A stretch of DNA of 64,000 nt, from positions 2,017 to 66,016 of the forward strand of contig CAZKNR010000128.1 of the NCBI GenBank assembly GCA_964553925.1, in the 5' to 3' direction. This document shows, one piece after another, positions 44,395 to 63,112 of this stretch (its first letter is position 1; every line of letters starts with the position of its first letter). Under the pieces are notes generated by a model. That model did not search any database, had not been told where the DNA came from, and saw only the letters and a list, made by a program, of their open reading frames with translations. This DNA comes from an uncultured Acidobacteriota bacterium. Its GTDB lineage: Bacteria > Acidobacteriota > Vicinamibacteria > Marinacidobacterales > SMYC01. A program made the translations under genes and the position numbers.

Positions 44395-44580
44395 CTAGCG
44401 ACCGCTCGGTCTTCGGTGCTGCCCAGGCACAGAGGGCGGCTGCAGAACGACGACGTTGGTGCCTTCGGCATATTCGGCAGCGTGCTTTCCGCGGACTCCT
44501 CCACATAGGGCGCTGAAGTCATACTCTGGACGCATGGTGTCTTTGTCTTCAAACCGCTTCGCCTTGGTCTGTTTCTTCAT
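44395..44580 (-). CDS. Small hypothetical protein with an antitoxin-like EYDFS...GVRGK motif
   Basis: 61-aa ORF 4 nt downstream of the GWxTD gene: MKKQTKAKRFEDKDTMRPEYDFSALCGGVRGKHAAEYAEGTNVVVL... The motif is recalled from small antitoxin-like proteins. No partner toxin is present. Confidence 0.3.
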   Translation of the reverse strand: MKKQTKAKRFEDKDTMRPEYDFSALCGGVRGKHAAEYAEGTNVVVLQPPSVPGQHRRPSGR

Positions 44581-44584
44581 AGAT

Positions 44585-46693
44585 CTACTTCGAAGCTCGC
44601 TCGGCCTTCAGCTTCAGGACGAGCTCCCGCACCTCTGGCTGAGCGGGGTCGAGGGCGAGGGATTGCTCGAAGAGCTCGACGGCTCGCGCGGCATCCTGGA
44701 GCCGATACTGAGAGCTCGCGAGGGCGTTCAGAAGCGAGGGCTGGGGCCGGCGGAGCGGAAGCGCCTTCTCCAGAAGCTCCGCCGCCCGGGCGAAATCGCC
44801 CCGACGGAAGTAAGCCTCTCCGAGCGGCGCCAGGATCTCGTAGCGGTCCTTGACCTCGGCGTAGACGGGTTCGAGAAGGGTCACGACTCTCTCGTAGTCC
44901 CCCGCCTGGAGGGCGAGCCGGGCCAGATGCTCCCGAGCGAGCCCGAGCTTCGGGTTTTCCTGAAGCGCTCGCTCGAATCGTTCGGCCGCTTTCGCGGGGT
45001 CGTTTCGTGCCAGATACTGTTCTCCGAGCATCGAGGAGACGAGCCCGGGAATTTCGGGGCGCACCTGAGGCGCCGCGGCGCGCGAGAGCGGCCGGGGAAT
45101 CGAGGTCCGCGGGGAAACGGTGAACGAAGCGGAAGCCTGCTCCAGAACGCTTCCGTTCTCGTCGACGAGCTCCGAGCGCAGGAGGAATCGGCCTCCCTGA
45201 AACTTCTCGAGGGAGAGCTCCTGAACGAGGGGGCTCGCGATCCGTTCCTTCAGCTCGACACTCTGGTCGATCATCGTCCCGCCCCCGGGCTCCTGGCTTT
45301 CCACCAGGAGCCGGATCCGAGAGGCCGGAGGCGCGTCATGCGGGATCGCCACGGTCATGGTCTCTCCGATGGCGAAGACGGCGCTCGGGTTGGGAAGGAT
45401 CTCGATCGTCCCGAACCGGTACGCGCGATACAGCGGCGCTCCCGGCTTCAGTTCGGAGCCATAGCCGAGGAGGAGCCCGCGGAGAGATCTCCCGCTTTCA
45501 GCAGGCACGTCCACTTCCTTGTCGAGGAGCGTGTAGCTCTTGGCGCAATCCTTCTCGACGCGGCTCGGGCAGGCGCGGTTTCTCAAGATCACCCGAAAGT
45601 TGTAGGCGCCGGGCACGAGCGGAGTCATTCCGGAGTACGCGAAGGGACGGTGGAGGGACGCCTGCTGCGCTTCTTTGAGCGTGACGAAGGACTCGTTGCG
45701 GCTCTGGAGCACGACGACGTTGGGGTCGTCCCGAAGAACCGCTTCGACCGATACGATGAACGCGGAGCCGTAGACTCCCCTCTCCTTATCGAGCACGAAG
45801 GCGATGTTCTCCGGCGGAATCTCGATGACCCAGTGGACGAACGAGACCCCGCCGTCTCCCTCGAGGACGTCGACCGCCCCCGCGCTCGCGACGTACCGGA
45901 AGAGGTAGTCGCTCTCGACGGCCCCGCGCTCGAAGTCGAGCCTCTCGGCGTAGCTGGTGTCGAGCCCATGGAACGGGATTCTCACGATCTGATCCATGAG
46001 CTCCATGGTGCCGAAGGAGACACCCGAGAACTGCGCGGTGTCGCCCTCGTCGGTGCGGAAGGACAAAGCGGCCTGCGCGAGCTCCGGGTCGACCTCGTTC
46101 AGCTTGTCGTAGGCTCTCTCGACGTCCTGGCGGAAGTCCGCGCTCTTGGCGTCCGTTCCCGTCAGAAGGGCCTGGGGACCATCGAGGACCGGGCTATAGA
46201 TCTCGAGCTCCCCCGCGCCGTGCCGTTGAAAGAACAGCAGGAAAAAAAACGGCGGAAGCCCGTAGCGCTTCAGATCGGGGTTGTCGTAGAACCAGAGCTC
46301 CGAGGAGTAGACCGCGTCGCTTCCGTCGAAGTTCTGGCGGTTGCGCGGAGGCCCGAGGAGTATGTAGTAGCGGCCGCGGTCCGTCTCGAAGCCCTCCCGG
46401 AACGTGTCGCGGCCGAAAAACTCGTTGACGTAAGCGAGCCTCTTGTAGTGCTCGTCCTTATACTCGTTCTCGAGCGTCGCCGGGTTCTCGTCGCGTTTGC
46501 GCCAGAAGGCATCGACGAACGCCTCCCGCTCCTGCTCGGATTCGAGACCGAGGAACACGTCGCGCTCGACCTCGCTGATGAGGTACGGGACCTCGTCCGT
46601 AAGCCACTTCTTGTGGTGCTCCGGGAGCCCCTCTATGCGATCCTGGGACGAAGCGAGAAGAGCCCCCGCGAGGATAAGCCCGAACATTTGCAT
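44585..46693 (-). CDS. GWxTD-domain protein with C-terminal TPR repeats
   Basis: HHKKWLTDEVPYLISEVERDVFLGL..EREAFVDAFWRKRD, GFETDRGRYYILLGPP (GWxTD-type core). TPR repeats at the C-terminus. The true start may be the third codon ATG 46687 (MFGLIL...). Confidence 0.75.
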   Translation of the reverse strand: MQMFGLILAGALLASSQDRIEGLPEHHKKWLTDEVPYLISEVERDVFLGLESEQEREAFVDAFWRKRDENPATLENEYKDEHYKRLAYVNEFFGRDTFREGFETDRGRYYILLGPPRNRQNFDGSDAVYSSELWFYDNPDLKRYGLPPFFFLLFFQRHGAGELEIYSPVLDGPQALLTGTDAKSADFRQDVERAYDKLNEVDPELAQAALSFRTDEGDTAQFSGVSFGTMELMDQIVRIPFHGLDTSYAERLDFERGAVESDYLFRYVASAGAVDVLEGDGGVSFVHWVIEIPPENIAFVLDKERGVYGSAFIVSVEAVLRDDPNVVVLQSRNESFVTLKEAQQASLHRPFAYSGMTPLVPGAYNFRVILRNRACPSRVEKDCAKSYTLLDKEVDVPAESGRSLRGLLLGYGSELKPGAPLYRAYRFGTIEILPNPSAVFAIGETMTVAIPHDAPPASRIRLLVESQEPGGGTMIDQSVELKERIASPLVQELSLEKFQGGRFLLRSELVDENGSVLEQASASFTVSPRTSIPRPLSRAAAPQVRPEIPGLVSSMLGEQYLARNDPAKAAERFERALQENPKLGLAREHLARLALQAGDYERVVTLLEPVYAEVKDRYEILAPLGEAYFRRGDFARAAELLEKALPLRRPQPSLLNALASSQYRLQDAARAVELFEQSLALDPAQPEVRELVLKLKAERASK

Positions 46694-46702
46694 TAGTATA
46701 GC
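46694..46702. promoter_or_regulatory. Entire 9-bp divergent intergenic spacer TAGTATAGC, a face-to-face -10-like core
   Basis: + strand: TAGTAT, 6 nt, then ATG 46706. - strand: TATACT, 6 nt, then ATG 46687. Confidence 0.35.
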
Positions 46703-49013: not shown

Positions 49014-51881
49014 TTAGAACTGGAAGCGAACGCCGAGCTTGAGGACGCGCGGATCCAGAGCGGCGATGATGTTGTTGAAGGTCCTCCCGGACGTGATGAA
49101 GAAGTTCGCCTCCGTGTTGGAGTTCATCACGTTGTAGACGTCGACGAGGCCGCTGAGCTTGTAGCCGCTACCGAAGGTAAAGCCCTTTTCCACGCGGATA
49201 TCGACGAGGGTGACCCTGTCGGAGTAGTTGTTGTTGATGTCCTCGAGGAAGACCGACTGGGTTCCCGAGCCGGGCACCGCGACCGGGTAGATGACCGCCC
49301 AGGGCCAGCCGCTCTGCATCCGCAGGTTCGCGGACAGAGCGATGTCCTTGGGCAGGACGTAGCGGCCGAGGAGACGGAAGTTCCAGTTCGAGCTGTCCTG
49401 GATGTTGTCGACCGACGGGTTGTGATTCTGCCAGAAGAGGACCGAGATCGGATCCGCGACGAGCGGGCTGGTGCTGACCGCCGCGGCCCGGCGGCGCTCG
49501 TTCCTCAACTGGTAGTCGAAGCTCGTCTGGACGAAGAAGTCCTCGGTGAACCGTCGCTGAAACGCGATCTGGAACGTGTCGTAGTTGTCGTCGTCGTACC
49601 CACCGGGGAACGTGTCGATGTTCGGCGCCTGCGCGTTGGCCGACGCATCCGGCACGCGCTCCAGACTGAGCGTCTGACCCGCGAACTGGCCGGGACAGCC
49701 GGTGCAGGTCGTGGTGAACGGAACTCCCCTCTCGAGAAGCGGGATCACCTGCGCGCGGTTCCAGGTGCCGAAGTCGTTCCGGAGCTGCTTTTTCACGTAA
49801 GAGAATCGCAGCGACGTGTCGGGCATGAGCTCATGCTCCACCGAGGCGCTGAACTCGTCGGCGTACGAAGGGGTCATGTTCGGGTTCACCGGGGTTCCCT
49901 GGGCGTTCGCAAGGCTCGATCCCACCGTGCCCGTCTGGCCGACTCGTGTCCCGAGCTCGCTGTCGCCGTCATAGAGCCCGTTCCGGTTCGGATCGAGGAA
50001 CTGGTAGGTCACGGTCGCGACACCCGCGGGGTTCCCGGTCGAAAGCCGGTCGGCGATGTTCTGGAAGTAGCGCCCGTAATGGCCTTTCAGGATGGTCTTT
50101 CCGGTTCCCGCGAGGTCATAGGTGACGCCTAGACGAGGAGCGAAGTTGTTCCAGGTGAGCAGATTCTGGCCCTCGATCGTCCCCGCGGGGAAGAACTGGG
50201 TGAGCTCCGGATTGAGCTCGGAGCTCTCGTAGGCGGCCGTTTGACGATGGAACCGGAATCCCAGGTTCAGCGTCATCCGGTCGTTCGGCGCCCAGGTGTC
50301 CTGAATGAAGAACGCGGTGTGGGTGTTGCGGTTGTCGTTCTGGTTCGCGCCGTCGGCTTTCACGTTGAAGAAGCGAATCTCGTTCACGTTGAACGGCCGT
50401 CCCAGGTTGCTGTTGTCCATGTAGCGGGTCGAGCCCGAGTTCGAGTTGAACCCGTACTGCGACGAGTCGATCTGCCAGTCAAAACCGATCTTCCAGTCAT
50501 GGCTTCCGCCCATGTTGGGCATGTAGTAGTTCGTGGTCGCCGTGACCTGGGGCTTCCAGCGGTCGAAGGTGAATGGCGGGCCGGCGGTGGGACCGACGTT
50601 CCATCCCGCGCCGCTCTGGCTGTTGTTCGAGATGTCGAACCGAGGCGGGTCGACGTCAGGATCGACCTTCGGCACCATGGGCCAGCCGAAGCCGAAGTGC
50701 TTGAGCTGGAAGTTCGTGAACATCCGGTCGCTCCAGACTCGCTGCCACTCGGCCTTGTGCACCCAGGACCAGCTGTCCTGCGAGAGCACCGCATCGGGCT
50801 CGATGGCCGCAGAGAGACCCCGGTTCGGCTTCTGCTTCAGGCCCCACTGGCTGTAGCCGATGAACTGGTCTTTTGGGGTGAGCTGGAACGTGACCTTGCC
50901 GCCGTAGCCGTAGAAGTTCCCGATGTCGGTCGCCACGTCGATCGGGACTCCGGAGATCGCCTTGTCGATCCGGAACCGGTTGAAGAAACCGTAAAACCAG
51001 GCCTTGTCCTTCACGATGGGACCGCCGGCATCGGCGTGGATCTCGTAGAAGATCAGGTTCGGGTTTCCGGTGTAACCGCGAGCCGCCGTCTCCTCGTCGA
51101 GGTTGTCGGCGACGAAGCTGTCGCCCTCGTAGTCCGCGTGAAACAGGCTGGAGAAGTCGTTACCCCCGCTCTTCATGGTCATCATGACGAAAGAGCCGGG
51201 CGCCGTCATCTCGACGTCGCCGCCGGCGGCCGTCGTCGTGAACTCCTCGACGGAGTAGTAGTCGTAGTAGAAGCCCGTTCCGCCGGTGCCCTCGGTCGAG
51301 TCGACGCCGTCGGAGAGGACACGGTTCTGGTTGCGAATGCCGAAGCTCTCGTAGCCCACCTGCTGGCTCTTGTGGCTTCCGCCGACGTCATAGCCCCGCA
51401 TACGCACGCCGGGGGTTTGGCTCAGCACCGCCCAGACGTCGGTCGCGCCCGGAACGTCCTGAAGCTGCGCGACCCCGAACTCGTTGCTGAGAGCGGTGTT
51501 GCGAACGTCGACGACGGGCGACTCACCGGTGACGGTGATCGTCTCGGCGACCGTCGCCACATCGAGCCCGGCGTCCACGGTGATGGTCCGCGTCCCGCCG
51601 ACGATGATGCCCTCGCGGTTCAGGGTTTGGAACCCCGCGAGCTCGAACATGAGATTGTACGATGCAGGCCGCAGCGCTCGGAACCGGTAGGTCCCGTCGT
51701 CCACGGTCACCGCCGTCTGCGCACCGAGAACGGCTTCACCGCTTAGAGTCACGCTGACGCCCGGGAGCACCAGCCCCTGCGCGTCCGTGACTTTCCCTTC
51801 GATCGCGCCAGTCGTCTGCGCGAAAGCCCCCGAAGCGAGGCCGAGCGCCACGACCGGCAGCACAAATAAGAGTCGACGCAT
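49014..51881 (-). CDS. Large outer-membrane beta-barrel, TonB-dependent-receptor-like with CarboxypepD_reg domain (paralog 2)
   Basis: MRRLLFVLPVVALGLASGAFAQ, GKVTDAQGLVLPGVSVTL, ITVTGESPVVDV, ends ...LKLGVRFQF. Collinear with 41447-44338 throughout. Start set to ATG 51881, 9 nt after AGGAGGA. Confidence 0.85.
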   Translation of the reverse strand: MRRLLFVLPVVALGLASGAFAQTTGAIEGKVTDAQGLVLPGVSVTLSGEAVLGAQTAVTVDDGTYRFRALRPASYNLMFELAGFQTLNREGIIVGGTRTITVDAGLDVATVAETITVTGESPVVDVRNTALSNEFGVAQLQDVPGATDVWAVLSQTPGVRMRGYDVGGSHKSQQVGYESFGIRNQNRVLSDGVDSTEGTGGTGFYYDYYSVEEFTTTAAGGDVEMTAPGSFVMMTMKSGGNDFSSLFHADYEGDSFVADNLDEETAARGYTGNPNLIFYEIHADAGGPIVKDKAWFYGFFNRFRIDKAISGVPIDVATDIGNFYGYGGKVTFQLTPKDQFIGYSQWGLKQKPNRGLSAAIEPDAVLSQDSWSWVHKAEWQRVWSDRMFTNFQLKHFGFGWPMVPKVDPDVDPPRFDISNNSQSGAGWNVGPTAGPPFTFDRWKPQVTATTNYYMPNMGGSHDWKIGFDWQIDSSQYGFNSNSGSTRYMDNSNLGRPFNVNEIRFFNVKADGANQNDNRNTHTAFFIQDTWAPNDRMTLNLGFRFHRQTAAYESSELNPELTQFFPAGTIEGQNLLTWNNFAPRLGVTYDLAGTGKTILKGHYGRYFQNIADRLSTGNPAGVATVTYQFLDPNRNGLYDGDSELGTRVGQTGTVGSSLANAQGTPVNPNMTPSYADEFSASVEHELMPDTSLRFSYVKKQLRNDFGTWNRAQVIPLLERGVPFTTTCTGCPGQFAGQTLSLERVPDASANAQAPNIDTFPGGYDDDNYDTFQIAFQRRFTEDFFVQTSFDYQLRNERRRAAAVSTSPLVADPISVLFWQNHNPSVDNIQDSSNWNFRLLGRYVLPKDIALSANLRMQSGWPWAVIYPVAVPGSGTQSVFLEDINNNYSDRVTLVDIRVEKGFTFGSGYKLSGLVDVYNVMNSNTEANFFITSGRTFNNIIAALDPRVLKLGVRFQF

Positions 51882-51964
51882 GATTTCCATTCCTCCTAAA
51901 TTCGTCCCTGAAAGACCGCCGTCAGGGGCGAAAGCGTTGGGCACCGGGACCGGCGGCGCTCTGG

Positions 51965-51994
51965 TATATAGCAAGCGATATGCCAGAGATTCAA
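51965..51994 (-). promoter_or_regulatory. Sigma70-like promoter (TTGAAT-N18-TATATA) upstream of OMP paralog 2
   Basis: Seen directly on the minus strand, about 85 nt upstream of ATG 51881. Confidence 0.35.
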
Positions 51995-52100
51995 AGGCGG
52001 GCCTCGAACTTAAGGCATTGAATAACCTGAAGTTGCACAGAGGCAAAAAAGGGGGGGCTTACGGGAATGATTCGGATATTCCGATCTCCGGATCCGTGAT

Positions 52101-53020
52101 TCAATTTGTTGGATCTATGACCCGCCATTCCCGGAGAAGTCCCCGCGCTTTCTGAAGGTCTTCCGCCGTAGCGACCGTCGGGGGCTTCCCGCACGAACCG
52201 CTCGAGGTAGAAGATGGCCTCCTGACGGGAGCGGTCGGAAAAAGCTCGAGCGGATTCAACATCGCATCGAACTGTGTCGAGCTCGAGGGCACGCTCGAGG
52301 TGCCGCACCGCCCCCGCCCCGTCCCCGCGCGCGAGAGCGAGGGACCCGAGGTTGTTCAACGCGCTCGCGGAGCTCGGATCGAGCTCGAGCACACGCGCGA
52401 ATTCCCTCTCGGCGTCTTCGGTTCGCCCCATCCGCGCGTAGGCCACTCCGAGATAGTTGTGCGCTTCCGCGAAGTCGGGGTGGTCGGACGCGAGGCCCTC
52501 GAGGAGCGCGAGCGCACGAGGTAGATCCGAGACCTCCATCAAGTACGAGCCGAGGAAGAAGCGAGAGATCGGTGACGCCTCTCGACGCGGCCTCTTCGAG
52601 AACCCGCACGGCTTCGGGGGTCCTTCCGAGCTGAAGGAGCGCGTAGGCAAGCTTCTGGTAGGCGAAGGACGAACGCGGTTGCTTCTCGAGGATCTCGCGC
52701 AGGGGCGCGAGCGCTTCCTCCGTCGGGCCATCCTGGAACCGATCGCTCGCCTCGTCGTGCATTGCCACGAAGGCAATGAGCCGTTTTGGGTCGTGTACGT
52801 CGTCTTGCGCTCGCGGGCGGTAGGCGCGACGAGATACCCAGGCTCTCGAGCCTCTTCATCGTCTCCTCATTGGCCGAAGTGCTCAATGGAGCCGCCCCCT
52901 GGGGCTCGCCCGGAGGCCCGTCGTCCTGGCCGACGTGGTGCGGCTCTGCTCCAAGAACGCCCTTTGACTCCGAGGTCGAAGAAGAGCGACGTTGAGGTTT
53001 TGGGACAGCTTCGTCTTCAT
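52101..53020 (-). pseudogene. Decayed 3' fragment of a sulfatase-TPR paralog (multiple frameshifts, internal deletion, sulfatase domain missing)
   Basis: Pieces in three frames align in order to the C-terminal half of 58254-60419. They are LFFDLG; ETMKRLESLG; DDVHDPKRLIAFVAMHDEASDRFQDGPTEEA...QPRSSFAYQKLAYAL; then EAHNYLGVAYARMGR...VLELDPSSASALNNLGSLALARG; then QFDAMLNPLEL; YLERFVREAP; AEDLQKARGLL. Confidence 0.6.
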
Positions 53021-54102
53021 CAAGACAGCACGTTCACGATGCAGTGAGTGTTGCCTCCGAGGGCATGAGTGACGTCGCGGAGCGGGCTCGGCTCGTAGCC
53101 CAGCTCGCGGTAGAGGTCGAACGCGACCGCTGCTTTGCCGCGGAGCGCTCTGCGGTCCACGACCGTCGCGTCTTCGCTCAACTCCCCGGGGAAGACCGGC
53201 AGCAGAACTCTCTTCCTTCCCGCCTCGCGGTCGAAGAAGGGCACGACGTTGACGGAGGAGCGGTAGCGCTCGAGATCCGACGCCTGGTGGTCGATAAACG
53301 AGACACGATAACCGAGCCCGCGGAGCTGGTCGGCGTAGTACCGGAGCTGCCGCGCTTCGGTCTCGAGACCGCCGCCCTCGAGCCGGCACGCGACCGCGAT
53401 CCGGTTCTCAAGAATGACGAAGGCCTGGTCGATGTGCTGGAGAAGCGGCGTCTGCGCCTCCTTCCCCATCTCGACGATTTCGATACCGCCGAACGTCGCG
53501 GCGACGTCGTCGAGCACCTGGCGCCGGGAGAGGGTCTCACCCGAGGCGGCGATAGTTCTCGAAATGTCGTTGCTGCCCACGAGAACAAGGCTCCTGTCGA
53601 ACGCCAGATTTCCACCCTCGAAGACGAACGGAGCTTCAATAACGGACTCTGCTCCAAAGACGATCTCGGCCACGCGCTTGCGATCGGCGGACATCTTTCT
53701 CGGGAGACCCATGGAGTTGGGCATCCTCCGGGCGACGAGGAAACGCTCTCGCCCTTCGAGGACGATGGACTCTCCGAGGTCCTGCGCCCAGAGCTCGATC
53801 TCGATCGCGGGGTCGTCCACGAGGTGAAGGCTCGCACCTTCGAATCCTGGCGGCTCTCGTCTCGCGACGATATCGACCGTCGTATAAGAAGGTAGGACGT
53901 TCCGTAGATCCCGAAAGGCGACCTCGAGGAACCGAGCAAGGGCCGCGGGATCGGTATCGCCCGAGGCATCGGGAAGGCAAACGAGCGCTCTCGAGAGCGT
54001 CCTTTCGTACTCGGGCCGCACCGGCGGCCTTTCGAGCCCCGGGAGCCGCAGAAGCGAAGCGGCGCCCATCCCGAGGATCTCCCGGCGGGTCATCTCGACC
54101 AT
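53020..54102 (-). CDS. Guanidino-group-modifying enzyme superfamily protein (agmatine deiminase / amidinotransferase-like) with Tat-type signal
   Basis: N-terminal MTRREILGMGAASLL twin-arginine motif. C-terminal GGNTHCIVNVLS resembles the catalytic-Cys end of agmatine/peptidyl-arginine deiminases. Confidence 0.55.
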   Translation of the reverse strand: MVEMTRREILGMGAASLLRLPGLERPPVRPEYERTLSRALVCLPDASGDTDPAALARFLEVAFRDLRNVLPSYTTVDIVARREPPGFEGASLHLVDDPAIEIELWAQDLGESIVLEGRERFLVARRMPNSMGLPRKMSADRKRVAEIVFGAESVIEAPFVFEGGNLAFDRSLVLVGSNDISRTIAASGETLSRRQVLDDVAATFGGIEIVEMGKEAQTPLLQHIDQAFVILENRIAVACRLEGGGLETEARQLRYYADQLRGLGYRVSFIDHQASDLERYRSSVNVVPFFDREAGRKRVLLPVFPGELSEDATVVDRRALRGKAAVAFDLYRELGYEPSPLRDVTHALGGNTHCIVNVLS

Positions 54103-56361: not shown

Positions 56362-58257
56362 CTAGGGCTCCCGGATCTCCACCAGGCGGTTGGTCTCGAT
56401 CGGCCCCGTAAGTTTCTGTTCCTTGCCCGAGGGCCATAGCACGTCGATGCTTTCGACCGCTCCCGCGTCACCGAGTCCGAAGTAGAGCGGGAGATCGCTC
56501 TGGGAGAGATACCCGGACTTGCCATCATTCACCCGGGTATAGCTGGCGCCGGAGGCGCTGACCACCACTCGCGCGCCGATAGCGGAGCGGTTCGAGACCC
56601 GGCCCACGAGCTTCACCTTCAGGAACCGGATGGCTTTTCTCTCACTCAGGTCGCTCATCAGAACCATGGGGCCGTCGTTGAACTCGTTGGTCACGACGTC
56701 GAGGTCTCCGTCGTCGTCAAGATCGAAGATCGCCGACGACCGGCTCGCGAGGGAGCCCCAGACTTCGACCTTGCCCGTCAGACCGTTGGCTTTGACCAGG
56801 GGGTGCTCCTTGTTCTCTCCCGACGCATCCAGGAGAAAAGCCAGGCCCGCGGTGCGCCCTCCCCTCCTTGGCTCGACGCCCAGGATGAACTCGCTGTCGC
56901 GGAACTTCGCTCCGCGGTCGTTCAGCAACAGGGTGTTGATGCCGTAGCGAAAGGGAAAGTTCATCCCCGACGTGATGAAGACGTCCTCGAAGCCATCGGC
57001 GTTCAAGTCGCCGACACTGAAGCCCCACGGCCACCAGTTCTCGACGCCGAGAGCGTCCGATATCTCGGTCAGCTTTCCCCCTCCATCGTTGCGGTAGAAC
57101 GCGTTTCCGTAAATGGCGTTGCCCCCGCTTCGGAGGAACCGCTCATCCCAGGGCATCCTCGATTTGAGCTTCTCGCGCTCAGGACCCACCTCTTCGCTCA
57201 TATCGGAGTGCATGTCGGTGACCATCACGTCCATGTCGCCATCGTTGTCGAAATCGAAAGCACCGATACCCATGGAGCCCCATGGGGTCCTGGGGAACAT
57301 CGCCCGGGTCTTTCTCGAGAAGCGCGTCCCCCCCGCGTTCTCGTAATACTGATCGTGTCCCTGCATGTTCAAGACGTAGAGGTCGGGAAAGCCGTCTTGG
57401 TTCAGGTCCATGGGGCTCGCGTCTCCGGTCCAGGCGTCGTCTACGAGCCCCGCTTCCTCCGTGACGTCTTGGAAACGGCGACCGCCGAGGTTCCGATAAA
57501 GGATGCTGCGCTCGGTGCGCTCCGGCTTCAGGTGACCCCCGAAGGCGTCGAGCACCCCGACGTAGTAGCCGCCGGGGCCCAATTGGTCCGTGGTATAGAC
57601 ACCGACGTTGCAGAGGTAGAGATCGAGGAGACCGTCGCGGTCGTAATCGAAGAACACCGAGGCCGAAGAGTGGCCGGAGTAATCGCTTCCCGAGGCTTTG
57701 GAGATATCGCGAAACCGGCCGGTTCCGTCGTTCTCGAAGAGGGCGTTTCCGTATCGGACCGTGGTCACGTAGAGATCAGGATCGCCGTCGTTGTCGACGT
57801 CGCCGAACGAAGCCGCGACCGGGATGCGGCCGGGGAGAGCCACGCCCGCCCGTTCAGTGACGTCCTCGAATCGTCCTTGACCGAGGTTGCGCCAGAGAGC
57901 GTTCGGCCCCGTCTGGTTGGTGAAGTAGAGGTCGAGCTTTCCGTCCGAATCCACGTCGGCGACGGCGATTCCGTTTCCGTGGTCGTAGTGGACGGCCTTG
58001 TGATGGACCCCCGAGTCTTCCGTCATCTGGTTCCGGAAGGTGATCCCGCTTTCCTCGACGAGGTCGCGGAACCGGAAGTCGTGAAACACTCCGATCTCTC
58101 CTGCGGATTTGAGTTGCTCTTCCCTCCTGCTTTCGAGCCAGGGCGGCTGGTCGACGCCCTCGGGGAAATAGATTCGTTTCGTCTCCGGTGTCTGCACGGC
58201 GCTCCAAAGGATCGCTCCCATGGCGAAGGCTCTCAGATGCATTTGGTCCTCCTTCAT
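56362..58257 (-). CDS. CRTAC1-family protein (FG-GAP/VCBS repeats plus C-terminal ASPIC/UnbV domain), copy 1
   Basis: Repeated DxDxDGxxD..Y..N...N.L..N.G.G.F.DV motifs. C-terminal GARVVVSASG...GKSGYLSQSDLPLYFGLG. 4-nt overlap with the upstream sulfatase-TPR gene. Confidence 0.8.
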   Translation of the reverse strand: MKEDQMHLRAFAMGAILWSAVQTPETKRIYFPEGVDQPPWLESRREEQLKSAGEIGVFHDFRFRDLVEESGITFRNQMTEDSGVHHKAVHYDHGNGIAVADVDSDGKLDLYFTNQTGPNALWRNLGQGRFEDVTERAGVALPGRIPVAASFGDVDNDGDPDLYVTTVRYGNALFENDGTGRFRDISKASGSDYSGHSSASVFFDYDRDGLLDLYLCNVGVYTTDQLGPGGYYVGVLDAFGGHLKPERTERSILYRNLGGRRFQDVTEEAGLVDDAWTGDASPMDLNQDGFPDLYVLNMQGHDQYYENAGGTRFSRKTRAMFPRTPWGSMGIGAFDFDNDGDMDVMVTDMHSDMSEEVGPEREKLKSRMPWDERFLRSGGNAIYGNAFYRNDGGGKLTEISDALGVENWWPWGFSVGDLNADGFEDVFITSGMNFPFRYGINTLLLNDRGAKFRDSEFILGVEPRRGGRTAGLAFLLDASGENKEHPLVKANGLTGKVEVWGSLASRSSAIFDLDDDGDLDVVTNEFNDGPMVLMSDLSERKAIRFLKVKLVGRVSNRSAIGARVVVSASGASYTRVNDGKSGYLSQSDLPLYFGLGDAGAVESIDVLWPSGKEQKLTGPIETNRLVEIREP

Positions 58258-60419
58258 TCGCCGAAAGCCTGCAGCATGGCTCGGGCCTTTTCGATGTCGG
58301 CCCGGTATCGCTGAGGCGGAGCTTCTCGGGCGAATCGCTCGAGGTAGGGAACCGCTTCCCGGGGAGAGGCGTCCGCGAGAGCCAGGGCCAGGTTGAAGAG
58401 CGCGTCGAACTGCCCGGGATCGCTCTCGACGGCGCGGCGCCAGAACTCGATGGCCTTCGGCATCTCCCCGCGCCGGGCGTGGGCGAATCCGAGACCGTTC
58501 AGCGCTGTCGCGGCGGCAGGGTCGATTTCGAGCGCCCGATTCAGATGGCCGACCGCTTCCTCGATCTTCCCTTGAGACAATGCGAGAGAGCCGAGATTGT
58601 TGTAGGCGGACGCCGAGCTTGGGTCGAGCTCCAGGACGCGTTCGAGCTCGTTGCGGGCATCGGCGAAACGACCGAGACGCCCATAGGCGATTCCGAGGTA
58701 GTTGTGCCCCTCGGCATAGTCAGGCTCGCGTTGGACCAGAGCCTCCAGGAGGCCCACCGCTTTTTCGAGCTCGCCGACGTCGAGGAGATAGGCGCCCAGC
58801 AGCCCGAGGAGTGCTGTATCCGAGAGGCCGCTCCGAACCGCGCCCTCGAGAATCGCCACCGCCTCTGCGATCCGGCCAGTTTGGTGCAGAGCGTAGGCGA
58901 GGCTCTGGTGAGCTTCGGAAGAGCGCGGCTGTCTTCCGACGATACCCTCGAAGATCGCGATCGCCTCCTCGGTCTGTCCTTCGCCGAAAAGCTCGCTGGC
59001 CTCGTTGTAGGCGTTGCTGATGTCGATGAGCCTCTTGGGGTCGTCGGCCTCGGTGTACTCACCCTTCCTGTTCTGGACGGGGGCCGTCAGATATCCCAGG
59101 GCGCGGAGCTTCGTAAGCGTCTCTCGATCGGGAGGCGCAACCGAAACCACCTCGCTTCCGGCCGAGATCCCGTCGAGAGTTTCCGAAAGCCGGCGGACGA
59201 GCCCCGTCTTCTGGTGATAGAGGTTCTCCTTCTCGTTCGGGTCCGAACCGAGGTCGTAGAGCTCCGGTGTGGGGAGGCGGATGAGCTTTTGGCCGTCCTC
59301 AACGACACCGGTGAGAGGCGCCCAGTCCTGGGTCAGGTGGGGGTTGAGCGCTTCGAAGTAGGAGGCCGGCGCTTCGTATCGAATCTCTCCCGTCAGGTAG
59401 GGCCGGAGACTCTGTCCCACGATGCGCTCCGGAGCTGGAACCGAAAGCAGGTCGAGGAGAGTGGGCAACACGTCGATATGCCGCACTGCCTCGGAGAAGA
59501 CCTGCGGTCGAAGTCCTTTGGCCCAGAGGATCCAGGGAACCCGGAGGGTCGATTCGTAGGCGAACGTCCCATGGGTCCTCTCGCCGTGCTCGCCCAGGGA
59601 TTCGCCGTGATCTCCGACGACGACGAGGACGGTTCCATCGAGACGACCCGAAGCCGATAGGCGCTCGAGGAACGTTCCCAGAGTGGTGTCGACAAAGGCG
59701 ACCTCCGCGCCGTAGAGATCGTTCGGGAACTTTCGCGCGAGCTCGGGAGGCGGGCGGTACGGGGCATGGGCGTCGTACAGATGCATCCAGGCGAACCATG
59801 GCGCTCGGGCTTCTCCAATCCATCGCTCCGCCGAGGAGACGACCGCGTCGGCGGGGCGCTCCAGCTGGGCGAAGCTGAGGAAACCCCGCTTCTCACCATA
59901 GTAGTCGTCATAGACGTCGAACCCCCGGTTCAACCCGAAGCGGGCGTCGAGGACGTATGCGCCAACGAATGCACCGGTCTGGTACCCCGCGTCTTGCAGC
60001 GTCGTCGCGAGCGTCGGAAGGGACTCGCTCACCCGAAACGTGCCGTTGTCGTGGACTCCGTGCTCGGTGGGATAGAGCGACGTAAAGAGGGAAGTGTGCG
60101 CGGGAAGAGTCAGCGGCGCGTGGGCGAGGACGCGTTCGAAGCGAACGCCCTCGCTCGCCAGCCGGTCCAAATGCGGAGTGAGACCCGCCTTCGACCCGTA
60201 GCTCCCGAGCCGGTCGGGCCTCAGCGTGTCGATGGTGACGAAAAGCAGGTTCCGCCCCTCGAAGGCGCCGTGCGCCACCGACTGGCGCGGCGGCGAGAGC
60301 CAGAGCCCAACCGCCGCGACCACGGCGGCAACCGCGAGACCCGCGAGCGCGAGTCCGGTTCTCGAAGAGAGCCGCACGGAGGGACTCGTTTTCTCGGATC
60401 GATTGCCTCGCCGGCTCAT
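58254..60419 (-). CDS. Sulfatase-like enzyme fused to C-terminal TPR repeats (paralog 2)
   Basis: TM anchor, LLFVTIDTLRPDRLGSYG, APLTLPAHTSLFTS, VVGDHGESLGEHGE, long TPR tail ending YLERFAREAPPQRY... Start moved to ATG 60419. Confidence 0.8.
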   Translation of the reverse strand: MSRRGNRSEKTSPSVRLSSRTGLALAGLAVAAVVAAVGLWLSPPRQSVAHGAFEGRNLLFVTIDTLRPDRLGSYGSKAGLTPHLDRLASEGVRFERVLAHAPLTLPAHTSLFTSLYPTEHGVHDNGTFRVSESLPTLATTLQDAGYQTGAFVGAYVLDARFGLNRGFDVYDDYYGEKRGFLSFAQLERPADAVVSSAERWIGEARAPWFAWMHLYDAHAPYRPPPELARKFPNDLYGAEVAFVDTTLGTFLERLSASGRLDGTVLVVVGDHGESLGEHGERTHGTFAYESTLRVPWILWAKGLRPQVFSEAVRHIDVLPTLLDLLSVPAPERIVGQSLRPYLTGEIRYEAPASYFEALNPHLTQDWAPLTGVVEDGQKLIRLPTPELYDLGSDPNEKENLYHQKTGLVRRLSETLDGISAGSEVVSVAPPDRETLTKLRALGYLTAPVQNRKGEYTEADDPKRLIDISNAYNEASELFGEGQTEEAIAIFEGIVGRQPRSSEAHQSLAYALHQTGRIAEAVAILEGAVRSGLSDTALLGLLGAYLLDVGELEKAVGLLEALVQREPDYAEGHNYLGIAYGRLGRFADARNELERVLELDPSSASAYNNLGSLALSQGKIEEAVGHLNRALEIDPAAATALNGLGFAHARRGEMPKAIEFWRRAVESDPGQFDALFNLALALADASPREAVPYLERFAREAPPQRYRADIEKARAMLQAFGE

Positions 60420-60420
60420 C

Positions 60421-60537
60421 TCTCGCGCACGAGTATAGTATCGGCTGTGGTTCTGTGCCGAACCGTCGTCCTGACGGGTCTCTCCGCCCCGCGCGTCGGT
60501 ACTTTCCGAGCCGAAGCGCCTCCAGAACGAGGGTGAC
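60421..60537. repeat. Direct repeat DR-L: degenerate copy of the promoter and first ~30 codons of the TPR gene
   Basis: Aligns to 61811-61930. The first 21 nt (TCTCGCGCAcGAGTATAGTAT) differ at one position. The rest is roughly three-quarters identical by eye, with small indels. Translation VVLCRTVVLTGLSAPRVGTFRAEAPPERG* compares with (V)LLCRTLVLMALFRLAQSELSEAKRLQSEGDY. Confidence 0.75.
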
Positions 60538-60715
60538 TTTGAGACACGCTCATGACCCGCGCCAGACCCCCCGCCGTTTCGTGAACGCGGCCGCACAGGC
60601 TCGTCTTCATAATCTCGAAACCGCCGTACGTACCGACTCGGATCCCCGCGAGGCCTACAACGACATACCTGGCCAAGATCCCCAACTCAGGTAAGCACCC
60701 CCAATCCGGAGGAGG

Positions 60716-60745
60716 TTGACATTTGGTTGCAGGGGAAGCTAAAGT
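60716..60745 (+). promoter_or_regulatory. Sigma70-like promoter (TTGACA-N18-TAAAGT) for the Xre-RES operon
   Basis: Seen directly, about 30 nt upstream of ATG 60775, which has a GAGGAGGA SD. Confidence 0.45.
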
Positions 60746-60774
60746 CGGAGCAGAACCCTCGAGGAGGAATCTCG

Positions 60775-61224
60775 ATGAGAACGATCGCCGAGCTCGTTCG
60801 GCTGGACCCGATTGAGGCTGCCGAGAAAGTCCTCGAAGCCCATCGAGAGCGGACGGAGTGGCTCGACGAGTTCGCCGAAGCCCTCGATCGGCGGCGTTCC
60901 GGACGGACGCTCCACCGCATACTAGCCGTGTGGGGTCTGAACCAATCGGAAGCGGCGGGTCTATTCGGCGTGGCGCGCCAGGCCGTCAGCAAGTGGCTGG
61001 ATCGAGGCGTTCCCGCGGAGCGAGCCGAAGCCATCGCGGAGCTGGCCGCCGCTACGGACCTCTTGGTCCGGCACGTCAAGCGCGACCGGATCCCGGCTGT
61101 CGTGCGCAGGCCCGCTGCGGCTCTCGGTGGGAAGTCCCTCGTCGAGCTCGTCTCCGCCTCCCGTCCCCATGACGTGCTCGAGGCCTGCCGGTCGATGTTC
61201 GACTTCGAACGAGCGCAAGCCTAG
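60775..61224 (+). CDS. Antitoxin, Xre/MbcA/ParS-like (HTH plus DUF2384 toxin-binding domain)
   Basis: LNQSEAAGLFGVARQAVSKWLDRG HTH. C-terminal RIPAVVRRPAAALGGKSLVELV...VLEACRSMF is DUF2384-like. Immediately upstream of the RES gene. Confidence 0.75.
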   Translation: MRTIAELVRLDPIEAAEKVLEAHRERTEWLDEFAEALDRRRSGRTLHRILAVWGLNQSEAAGLFGVARQAVSKWLDRGVPAERAEAIAELAAATDLLVRHVKRDRIPAVVRRPAAALGGKSLVELVSASRPHDVLEACRSMFDFERAQA

Positions 61225-61250
61225 ATTCAGCTGCCAAGATTCCCCGAAAC

Positions 61251-61796
61251 GTGCGGACGGAGACGCTACCCCATCGACACGAGTGGTGGCGCATCGCGAA
61301 CCCTGCGTGGGATAACCCGCTCGACCCCAGCTATGCGCAGGCGCGTGGCGGTCGCTGGAACCCACCCGGCAGCTTCCCGACACTCTACTTCAACCAAGAC
61401 ATCGTGACCGCTCGCCTCAATCTCCGAACGTTCATTGCAGGGTGGCCCTACGAACCGGAAGATCTCCGAGACGAGACCGGCCCCCTGCTCGTCGGCGCAT
61501 ACCTACCCCGAAACCAGCGAGTTGTTGACGTGCACTCACGAGAGGGCGTTGCCGCCGTGAACCTTCCCGCGTCCTACCCTCTGAACGCCACTGAGGGGCG
61601 GGGCGAGCTCGTGCCTCATTCCAAGTGTCAGCCCATCGGTCAGCAGGCGAAGGAACGCGGACTTCGGGGCGTTCGCTGCCGCTCGTCCCGGGTACGGGAT
61701 GGCGCCGGTCGAGAGCTGGCATGGTTTCCGGCGACGGCGAGGAGTCGGGCACGGCAAAGAACCGCGCTTCGTTTCGAACGATGGTTCTGGGGCTAA
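61251..61796 (+). CDS. RES-domain toxin (MbcT/ParT-like NAD+-targeting family)
   Basis: WRIANPAW..., ARGGRWNPPGSFPTLYF (R), ...E..., GVRCRSSRV (S). GTG start 26 nt after the antitoxin stop. Confidence 0.8.
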   Translation: MRTETLPHRHEWWRIANPAWDNPLDPSYAQARGGRWNPPGSFPTLYFNQDIVTARLNLRTFIAGWPYEPEDLRDETGPLLVGAYLPRNQRVVDVHSREGVAAVNLPASYPLNATEGRGELVPHSKCQPIGQQAKERGLRGVRCRSSRVRDGAGRELAWFPATARSRARQRTALRFERWFWG

Positions 61797-61810
61797 CAGG
61801 TGAGAGAGCC

Positions 61811-61930
61811 TCTCGCGCATGAGTATAGTATTGACTCGTGCTCTTGTGCCGAACCCTCGTTTTGATGGCACTGTTCCGCCTCGCGCAGTCCGAGCTCTCC
61901 GAGGCGAAGCGACTCCAGAGCGAAGGTGAC
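61811..61930. repeat. Direct repeat DR-R: functional promoter and 5' end of the TPR gene
   Basis: See DR-L. Begins 14 nt after the RES stop. TATAGT (61824-61829) lies 8 nt before GTG 61838. Confidence 0.75.
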
Positions 61931-63112
61931 TATCCGCAGGCGATCGCTCTTTTGGAGAGCTACCTCCGGGAGGAGCCTGATGACTCCGAAGGAGGAACGC
62001 TCCTCGCGTGGCTCTACGTCCAAACGGGAAGGCAAGATCGGGCTATCGAGACCTACCGAAGCCTCGTGAGTCGTCATCCTGACGAGGCCGACCTCCACAA
62101 CAGCCTCGGCGCACTCCTGTTCAAGAAGCGCGCGCTCGGGGAAGCGGAACACGAGCTCGAGACCGCCGTCACCCTCGACCCCTCGTTGGTAATGGCCCAC
62201 TACAACCTCGGCCTTCTGAGGTTCGAGCAAGGCGAGCTCGAAGGCGCCGCGCGGTCTTTCGAGCGCGCCCTCTCGCTCGATCCGAATAAAGCCCATTATC
62301 ATTTCAGCCTCGCGCGAGCGTACCGGGCGTCGTTCGAGTTTGGGAAAGCGGCGGCTGCGTTCCATGCGGGTCTCGCGCTTTCCCCTCCGCCCGACGTCGC
62401 CCGTCCCGCTCGTCTCGAGCTGGCCTTGACGCTGAAGCACGACGGCCGGCTCAACGATTCGGAAACGGAGCTCCGAAACCTCGTTGCCGCCGACGCTGCC
62501 GACGGCGAGGCGCTCTTCCAGCTCGGGCGGCTCTACCTCGCCATGAACCGGTATCCGGAGGCGGAAGGGGTGTTTCGACGGTTGACCGACGTGAGCCCCG
62601 GCTACGCCCCGGCCCATTTCATGCTCGGGTTCGTTTCGTACCGGGAGGACGATCCCGAGAAGGCGCTCGCCTCGTTCCGAAAGCTCCTCGAGCTCACGCC
62701 CGACCACGCCGAGGGACGCTACTACCTCGGGATGAGCCTCCAGAAGCTCGGGGATCGCGAAGGAGCGCGGGAGGCCTTCGAGGAGACCCTTCGCATCGAT
62801 CCGGAGCACGTGAGCGCAAGCTACAACCTCGGGCTACTACTCGCCAGGGAAGGCGAGCGCGAGGAATCCCGGAGGAGAATCGAGGCGTTTCGCGAGCTCG
62901 GCGAGCGAAAGGAGCGACTTGCCGCGCTCGAAGAGCGAGTCCGCTGGGATCCAGGAAACGCGAAGTTCTATTTCGACGTGGGCCAGGAGTACTCGCGGCA
63001 GAAGAGGACGAAAGAGGCTCTCCAGGCGTTTCAGCGAGCCCTCGAGATTGAGCCGGATCTGGCCGCCGCGGAGGTCGCGATCGCCGAGCTCCTCGCGAGC
63101 CGAGCCCCGTAG
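61838..63112 (+). CDS. TPR-repeat protein
   Basis: Signal/anchor-like N-terminus, then about 10 TPR units (e.g. AHYNLGLLRFEQGELEGAARSFERALSLDP). Followed 4 nt later by a CRTAC1-like gene. Confidence 0.75.
   Translation: MLLCRTLVLMALFRLAQSELSEAKRLQSEGDYPQAIALLESYLREEPDDSEGGTLLAWLYVQTGRQDRAIETYRSLVSRHPDEADLHNSLGALLFKKRALGEAEHELETAVTLDPSLVMAHYNLGLLRFEQGELEGAARSFERALSLDPNKAHYHFSLARAYRASFEFGKAAAAFHAGLALSPPPDVARPARLELALTLKHDGRLNDSETELRNLVAADAADGEALFQLGRLYLAMNRYPEAEGVFRRLTDVSPGYAPAHFMLGFVSYREDDPEKALASFRKLLELTPDHAEGRYYLGMSLQKLGDREGAREAFEETLRIDPEHVSASYNLGLLLAREGEREESRRRIEAFRELGERKERLAALEERVRWDPGNAKFYFDVGQEYSRQKRTKEALQAFQRALEIEPDLAAAEVAIAELLASRAP

Follow-up and report, generated by a model that had tools for sequence, protein, structure and literature searches.

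A RES-Xre toxin-antitoxin cassette between two copies of a compact promoter region in an uncultured Acidobacteriota bacterium

How does a toxin-antitoxin (TA) gene pair that brings no mobility gene with it come to lie between two long direct repeats, both of which resemble the promoter and the 5' end of a neighbouring gene? We addressed this question for a RES-Xre pair in a 64,000-nt stretch of contig CAZKNR010000128.1 (positions 2,017 to 66,016; GenBank assembly GCA_964553925.1, uncultured Acidobacteriota bacterium), hereafter called the window, where the pair stands between a sulfatase-TPR gene on the left and a TPR gene on the right. The original prediction was that a TA module of about 1.27 kb had been inserted about 90 nt into the TPR gene with duplication of the target, which left a repeat of about 120 bp on each side (DR-L and DR-R), and that selection maintains the promoter in both copies. 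Comparison with loci fetched from related genomes supports this interpretation with three corrections, which concern the size of the duplication (including a secondary deletion in the window), the size of the inserted fragment and the family label of the antitoxin. We consider it likely that a single insertion placed a foreign fragment of about 1.4 kb in a compact bidirectional promoter, that about 180 bp of the target were duplicated in a process not driven by a transposase, and that the unused halves of the two copies decayed afterwards.

The similarity of the two repeats is far stronger than expected by chance. In a local alignment, DR-L and DR-R are identical in 97 of 122 columns (79.5%), with three 1-nt gaps, which bears out the predicted alignable length of about 120 nt. 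The alignment score of 113 lies far above all 500 dinucleotide-preserving shuffles (mean 20.8, maximum 31) and above the best score of 35 in a real-DNA control of 308 other windows from the same 64 kb. Both repeats open with the same 21-mer, TCTCGCGCAYGAGTATAGTAT, as had been claimed, and it is found at 60421 and 61811 alone even if up to three mismatches are tolerated (expected number 0.00). Identity is perfect only in this core and amounts to about 80% on either side. According to the list of open reading frames (ORFs), DR-R contains the start of the TPR ORF, a GTG at 61838, and DR-L encodes a frameshifted and truncated look-alike that ends in ...VVLCRTVVLTGLSAPRVGTFRAEAPPERG followed by a stop, so that one repeat holds the real N-terminus and the other a broken copy, as expected. 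The broken copy encodes no conserved peptide, because its frameshift in the window differs from that in the relative L001. The right junction had been placed 14 nt after the RES stop codon, and DR-R indeed begins 13-14 nt downstream of it. Chance or an assembly artefact as the source of the repeats was ruled out by the shuffle statistics and by the presence of the same junctions in three independent assemblies (the window, L001 and L002).

The predicted empty site also exists. In a contig scan with the TPR protein, we found the sulfatase-TPR and TPR genes back to back in L026 and L032, 26-28 nt apart and with one repeat copy, and each of these two loci has a single segment to which DR-L and DR-R both align. 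The contigs of L025 and L027 are cut short but have the same appearance. The left junction, ...GGTGACTAT/GAGACACGC..., is located 93 nt into the TPR gene; together with the single copy at the empty sites, it confirms an insertion about 90 nt into this gene with duplication of the target. Both the insertion and the empty state can therefore be seen directly. Loci L007-L012, from more distant genomes, were rejected as empty sites because their gene order is too rearranged. One of them, L008 (2700-5010), belongs to a Vicinamibacteria metagenome-assembled genome (MAG) and has the order TPR <-> ASPIC -> sulfatase, not TPR <-> sulfatase -> ASPIC; its sulfatase gene has an upstream core copy of its own, which carries a 6-nt insert (CTCTTACGCACGAcccgccAGTATAGTAT). 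This gene order and the extra core copy indicate that the cluster was rearranged around the promoter motif.

An older state of the filled site is preserved in L001 and L002, two soil metagenome contigs of the Joint Genome Institute (JGI) whose RES proteins are 95% identical to that of the window. Their cassettes occupy the site found in the window and share its left junction and left spacer. Downstream of the RES stop codon come a (CTAA)n run, then a spacer of roughly 115 nt at L001 3417-3535, then about 55 nt of decayed sulfatase 5' sequence with the start codon, and finally the core and the TPR gene. The extent of the original duplication can thus be read directly: about 55 nt of sulfatase 5' coding sequence, the 28-nt intergenic core and 93 nt of TPR 5' coding sequence, or about 180 bp in total, covering both gene starts. 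The predicted repeat length of about 120 bp is correct for the window, but as the original size it has to be given up, since the window holds a truncated remnant of the duplication seen in L001 and L002. Relative to L001, the window is without about 159 nt between two TCTCG motifs (L001 3430 and 3589), and this later loss is the reason why DR-R lies only 14 nt after the RES stop. Similarly, the insertion as such was correctly predicted, but not its size, because the inserted fragment of about 1.4 kb consists of a 1.1-kb TA unit and two foreign spacers. The left spacer is common to the window and L001 only (81.6% identity, with indels) and absent from other cassette copies, and it does not derive from the TPR gene by decay. 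We also considered whether the spacers are further decayed target, and this was rejected, as their alignment scores equal those of shuffles (z <= 2.1). The (CTAA)n microsatellite, of about 7 units, directly follows the RES stop codon TAA (L001 3387-3416, L002 723-752); it is missing from the window and from L041 and seems to have expanded from GCTAAC at the stop. The features of the locus are collected in Table 1.

Table 1. Features of the filled locus, in coordinates of the window
Feature	Coordinates	Strand	Description
Sulfatase-TPR gene	58254..60419	-	left neighbour; Pfam Sulfatase E=1.4e-42 and TPR families
DR-L	60420..60538	none	left copy of duplicated target; core 60421-60441 and decayed TPR half-copy 60447-60538
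Left spacer	60539..60700	none	foreign part of inserted fragment
Mobile TA unit	60701..61800	+	promoter, antitoxin, RES toxin; 94.7-95.2% identical to L041/L043, 96.6% to L001
Cassette promoter-like site	60716..60745	+	TTGACA-N18-TAAAGT; consensus scan
Antitoxin	60775..61224	+	149 aa; helix-turn-helix (HTH); predicted MbcA/NatR-like fold; helical N-terminal extension of about 50 aa
RES toxin, MbcT-like	61251..61796	+	181 aa; PF08808 match; AlphaFold (AF2) model
Secondary-deletion scar	61801..61809	none	L001/L002 hold (CTAA)n, spacer and sulfatase half-copy here
DR-R	61810..61931	none	right copy of duplicated target; core 61811-61831 and genuine first 93 nt of TPR gene
TPR gene	61838..63112	+	right neighbour; 424 aa; GTG start; Pfam TPR families

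The cassette moves between contexts. Searching for the same RES-Xre cassette elsewhere revealed copies up to 95% identical in unrelated surroundings: L041 (95.2% to the window; kinase-like gene upstream and radical-SAM-like gene downstream), L043 (94.7%; SNF2/DUF3670 helicase upstream), L044, L005 and L003 (about 85%; BNR-like gene upstream and DUF433 downstream), L042 (84%; contig too short for context) and L006 (79%; PQQ_2 gene upstream). Over L044, L005, L042 and L006, identity of the TA unit ranges from 78% to 86%. The homology of the cassette copies to the window spans 60701, just before TTGACA, to 61800, the CAGG after the stop. L041 and L043 share with each other 61 nt further on the left than they share with the window, so the TA unit has no fixed ends. 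Long direct repeats flanking the cassette are absent at L041, L044 and L005, and were therefore rejected as a general mark of the cassette. The ends of the insert bear no terminal inverted repeats, and an attC-type palindrome is missing from the 3' side of the cassette. Neighbouring genes in the window include neither an integrase nor a transposase, and no integrase lies near the cassette in L001, in agreement with the earlier statement that a mobility gene is missing. An insertion sequence (IS), a transposon or a miniature inverted-repeat transposable element does not fit the missing inverted repeats, a duplication of about 180 bp, variable flank lengths and the lack of a nearby transposase; an integrase-driven island or an integron cassette does not fit the lack of an integrase and of a palindromic 3' element.

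These observations bear on the idea that the 21-mer is the attachment core of a site-specific integration and that the cassette is all that is left of an integrative island that lost its integrase. As with attL and attR, identical 21-mers stand at the two ends of the insert, and integrative elements that enter gene ends often bring a substitute gene end, but we regard this explanation as very unlikely, because no integrase lies near the cassette in either genome, the 21-mer is a native promoter that is also present in empty sites, the homology extends beyond it by about 55 nt leftwards and about 100 nt rightwards, and cassettes 95% identical occupy unrelated sites without it. L043 has only an 11-nt match, in the loop of a hairpin. 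This hairpin is located upstream of the cassette (L043 3760-3830), its loop contains CTCATGAGTATAGTGG, and the match to the promoter core of the window is probably due to chance or to a common -10-like motif.

The polarity of the change can be deduced from the core. TATAGT is present in DR-L and DR-R alike, but each of the four sites that are empty or likely to be empty has TATAAT, which indicates that the empty sites are not excision products and that the filled allele arose once. If the filled state were ancestral, with the empty sites produced by repeat-repeat recombination and precise excision of the cassette, any such excision would have kept TATAGT; moreover, the cassette is younger than its flanks (96.6% versus 85-90%). 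Direct repeats do permit deletions of this kind, and filled and empty genomes are interleaved by the similarity of their flanking genes, but this history is still extremely improbable.

The interleaving can be explained in another way. In the sulfatase gene, the window, L001, L026 and L032 are equidistant (88.5-90.5%), whereas the TPR side of L001 is 93.6% identical to the empty L026 and 85.5% to the window. The TA units of the window and L001 have 96.6% identity, compared with 90% and 85.5% for their flanks, and identity along the locus forms a mosaic. Because filled and empty flanks interleave, the TA unit is more alike than its flanks, and identity is mosaic, the filled allele probably spread among related lineages by homologous recombination in the flanking genes. 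In the part of the sulfatase gene that encodes the N-terminal tail and the membrane anchor (window 60210-60406), identity to L001 is 74-79%, and in the adjoining 100-nt blocks it is 92-98%, which marks the locus as a recombination mosaic.

The length of the duplication may be understood from the compactness of the target. Consensus scans identified a minus-strand promoter-like site for the sulfatase gene in DR-L (TCGGCA-N18-TATACT, 60461-60432) and a plus-strand promoter-like site with TATAGT in DR-R. The predicted -10 hexamers of the two divergent genes overlap by 4 bp, the sulfatase -35 falls within codons 4-6 of the TPR gene, and the promoter-upstream region of each gene lies inside the first codons of the other. 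This overlap resembles the pseudo-symmetric bidirectional promoters described in bacteria (PMC12825309, PMC10268837). The sulfatase-TPR gene most plausibly starts with the ATG at 60419 (MSRRGNRSEK..., then the membrane anchor), 1 nt from DR-L, and the GTG of the TPR gene sits 8 nt after the TATAGT of DR-R. Since the start codon lies 8 nt after the -10 hexamer, in L008 too (TATAAT, then ATG 8 nt on), the TPR mRNA is probably leaderless or nearly so; the frame from this GTG is intact in L026, L025 and L032, where the sole indel is 6 nt. Judged by these consensus matches and conservation, any insertion in the region, unless accompanied by its duplication, would separate one or both genes from the promoter or the start. 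With a duplication of about 180 bp, the left copy would still serve the sulfatase gene and the right copy the TPR gene. The arrangement fits the proposed selection on both promoter copies, as each repeat retains one working gene start (the ATG at 60419 beside DR-L, and the GTG after the TATAGT of DR-R).

With regard to the process itself, host recombination would be the likeliest agent rather than a transposase or an integrase, because there is no transposase, no integrase, no defined end and no repeat at the other insertion sites. If the ends of the fragment were joined at positions that overlap by about 180 bp, two copies of the target must have taken part. The likeliest route would be an illegitimate joining at a replication fork, in which the two ends of the fragment attached to different sister copies of the target and the overlap was duplicated. 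Survival would have been limited to products in which neither promoter and neither gene start was lost. The two unused half-copies then decayed, and the window subsequently lost its decayed copy of the sulfatase half through the deletion of about 159 nt. The long duplication is a side effect of a single insertion event in a very compact promoter and not a new mobility system.

The pattern of decay is directly visible in the alignments. When the TPR parts are set against four other alleles, DR-L shows 13 changes of its own and DR-R shows none, and the sulfatase half-copy in DR-R of L001 and L002 has 6 unique changes; thus, the unused halves decayed while the used halves were conserved. Several points nevertheless weigh against the history proposed here. 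DR-L differs between the window and L001 at only 6 of about 105 nt and the adjacent spacer by 18%, yet 13 unique changes are older. At three linked sites DR-L has the allele of L032 and L027, whereas DR-R has the allele of L026 and L025. The spacers match no fetched locus and nothing in the rest of the window, so they provide no donor context. The promoter and leaderless-mRNA assignments come solely from consensus matches and conservation, and the joining mechanism goes beyond what a sequence lets us observe. In the toxin, the glutamate E69 in the R-E-S motif of the reference toxin MbcT aligns with an invariant asparagine, N57 (window 61419-61421), in a profile match that covers only 44 residues there.

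The uneven rate of change in DR-L would also fit a half-copy that had already diverged on arrival. In such a Campbell-type integration, a circle with the TA operon, the spacers and a homeologous sulfatase/TPR promoter segment of a related strain would have been integrated by one homologous crossover in the identical core, and the unused halves would have been foreign from the start. This scenario accounts for the restriction of perfect identity to the core with about 80% on both sides, for the 13 DR-L changes fixed before the split of the window and L001 with only 6 since, while the spacer diverged by 18%, and for the three linked sites that match the L032/L027 allele. However, it needs a circle in which the cassette already stood beside this promoter segment, which only shifts the problem back; no such element was found, and the other cassette copies are without the core or flanking repeats. 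In addition, donor and recipient would both need the rare TATAGT, although all empty sites have TATAAT, and most of what distinguishes DR-L is absent from all four other alleles, as decay predicts. We therefore consider integration of a circle unlikely, and keep to a single insertion with duplication of the target.

The identity of the inserted genes was established from profiles and predicted structures. The toxin matches Pfam PF08808 (RES) with E=2.4e-11 and 44.3 bits (cut-off 23.2) over residues 12-173, and has more than 1,300 homologs, many of them 65-95% identical and in different phyla, some of which NCBI names RES family NAD+ phosphorylase. Because sequence-only searches of the PDB gave weak matches (MbcT E=0.0011, MbcA E=0.13), structure prediction was needed. 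An AF2 model of the toxin, built from 24 homologs (predicted local distance difference test, pLDDT, 82.6), has MbcT (6fkg_A) as its best Foldseek match, with E=2e-7 and a template-modelling (TM) score of 0.67, followed by ParT (E=4e-4), VPA0770 (7e-4), the P. putida RES protein (9e-4) and NatT (5e-3). The RES assignment therefore holds, with a profile score above the curated cut-off and a fold that matches solved RES toxins. The reference residues of MbcT are the R-E-S motif R47-E69-S126 together with R27 and Y58, of which R47 and Y58 are essential for toxicity (PMC6436930). In a profile-to-PDB alignment, R47 and Y58 align with the invariant residues R35 and Y46 of the toxin; R14 is invariant as well and is probably the counterpart of R27, and S145 is nearly invariant but not aligned with S126. 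By its likeness to MbcT, the toxin may deplete NAD+.

The antitoxin has only HTH matches in Pfam and NCBIfam, all of them below threshold. PF09722 (DUF2384) is matched neither by the protein nor, on record, by any of its 120 best homologs, so the DUF2384 label is unsupported by hidden Markov models (HMMs). Its AF2 model (pLDDT 90.4) matches NatR (8qnl, E=6e-5), MbcA (6fkg_C, 2e-4) and VPA0769 (2e-3) over about 105 residues in Foldseek, with TM scores of 0.56-0.74, normalised by target length. For the predicted Xre/DUF2384 antitoxin, the domain label thus lacks profile support, and the predicted structure points to an MbcA/NatR-like fold. As modelled, the gene pair is a RES-Xre (MbcTA-like) module with a divergent, N-terminally extended antitoxin, the C-terminal part of which may block the toxin and also repress the cassette promoter. 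The locus also flags a widespread RES-associated antitoxin subfamily that is overlooked by current HMM libraries.

The antitoxin and RES genes are found together at every locus that spans both (L001, L005, L006, L041 and L044), and likewise in L043, where the contig breaks off within RES, and in L042, where it breaks off within the antitoxin gene. The promoter that the cassette had been predicted to carry was located by the consensus scan (Table 1), and its TTGACA-N18-TAAAGT pattern is conserved in cassette copies at other loci. Its -35 is overlapped by a block, GGTTGACATTYGGTTGCA (window 60713-60731), which occurs in L001, L041, L043, L044 and L006 too and is kept even in cassette copies that are 78% identical overall, whereas the bases after it vary. 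This conservation makes the block a candidate antitoxin operator. The gap between the two genes is 26 nt (61225-61250); in L001 (2800-2840) this spacer is 15 nt longer owing to a local repeat, CCAAGATTCAGC-like. No terminators and no RNA families were found at the cassette (no Rfam match), and the PADLOC defence-system models gave no meaningful match.

The orthologs of the sulfatase-TPR gene in L001, L026 and L032 are about 90% identical at the nucleotide level. The host is an acidobacterium close to the Vicinamibacteria, and its sulfatase is 74-79% identical to those of such MAGs. Elsewhere in the gene cluster, window 52276-52916 is a TPR-only remnant of a second sulfatase-TPR paralog, from which about 1.1 kb encoding the sulfatase domain are missing; in L009 and L012, the full paralog stands between the orthologs of window 53020-54102 and 49014-52046. 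Two ORFs of the sulfatase/ASPIC/cytochrome cluster, at 44456-46696 (746 aa) and 53020-54102 (360 aa), match no Pfam family at E<=1e-5, and the 360-aa ORF is conserved in L009 and L012 (72-75% identity).

The movement of chromosomal TA pairs without mobility genes of their own is poorly documented, and this locus offers a clean comparison of filled and empty sites with exact junctions. It suggests that the duplication of about 180 bp of target allowed one insertion into a 28-nt bidirectional promoter to survive. Nevertheless, the locus is a fairly ordinary example of the spread of a TA pair, and no new kind of system is involved. We speculate that chromosomal TA cassettes without mobility genes may more generally spread by fork-associated or sister-chromatid illegitimate joining, which would leave target duplications hundreds of bases long, and that the duplicated promoter would here wire the cassette into host control, but we think this quite unlikely. 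If it were true, the left promoter copy would still fire rightwards into the TA operon, and the right copy would fire leftwards and produce an RNA antisense to the 3' end of the toxin gene, with a start in the window about 14 nt from the toxin stop.

Among known RES-Xre systems, the closest is the type II pair MbcT-MbcA of Mycobacterium tuberculosis (6FKG; PMC6436930), in which a RES toxin of about 180 aa is likewise encoded downstream of its antitoxin. The toxin model finds its best structural match in MbcT, the antitoxin model has MbcA among its matches, and R47 and Y58 align with residues that are invariant here. In contrast, sequence identity is only about 20%, the antitoxin here is extended at its N-terminus by about 50 aa of helical structure and is missed by the Pfam and NCBIfam antitoxin models, and the position of E69 is an invariant Asn. 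NatR of the NatR-NatT pair of Pseudomonas aeruginosa (8QNL; PMC11535050) is the top structural match of the antitoxin and the operon order is the same, but NatT is larger (250 aa). The toxins of ParS-ParT (6D0I) and of the Pseudomonas putida Xre-RES pair (6GW6, 9R35; PMC12204516) were recovered by the toxin model as well, again with the same operon order. ParT ADP-ribosylates Prs instead of degrading NAD+, and thus the exact chemistry of a toxin cannot be read from the fold.

With regard to the insertion, a literature search returned no direct precedent for a TA pair inserted with a long target duplication. Gene-end integrative elements with attL and attR are similar in that the insert lies between direct repeats and the gene that was entered remains functional, but here there is no integrase, the repeats are duplicated native target, and the cassette occurs elsewhere at unrelated sites without repeats. 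Another parallel is provided by Streptococcus pneumoniae, in which survivors of the integration of a cassette into a needed gene carry a duplication that arises by interchromatid integration (PMC3784515). The duplications in these merodiploids measure 100-900 kb and arise via IS-derived repeats, whereas the one described here measures about 180 bp and has joints at which no repeat can be seen, and the process demonstrated there by experiment is deduced here from the sequence. In both cases, a foreign cassette lies between two copies of its target, one of which is intact, and the survivors keep a working copy.

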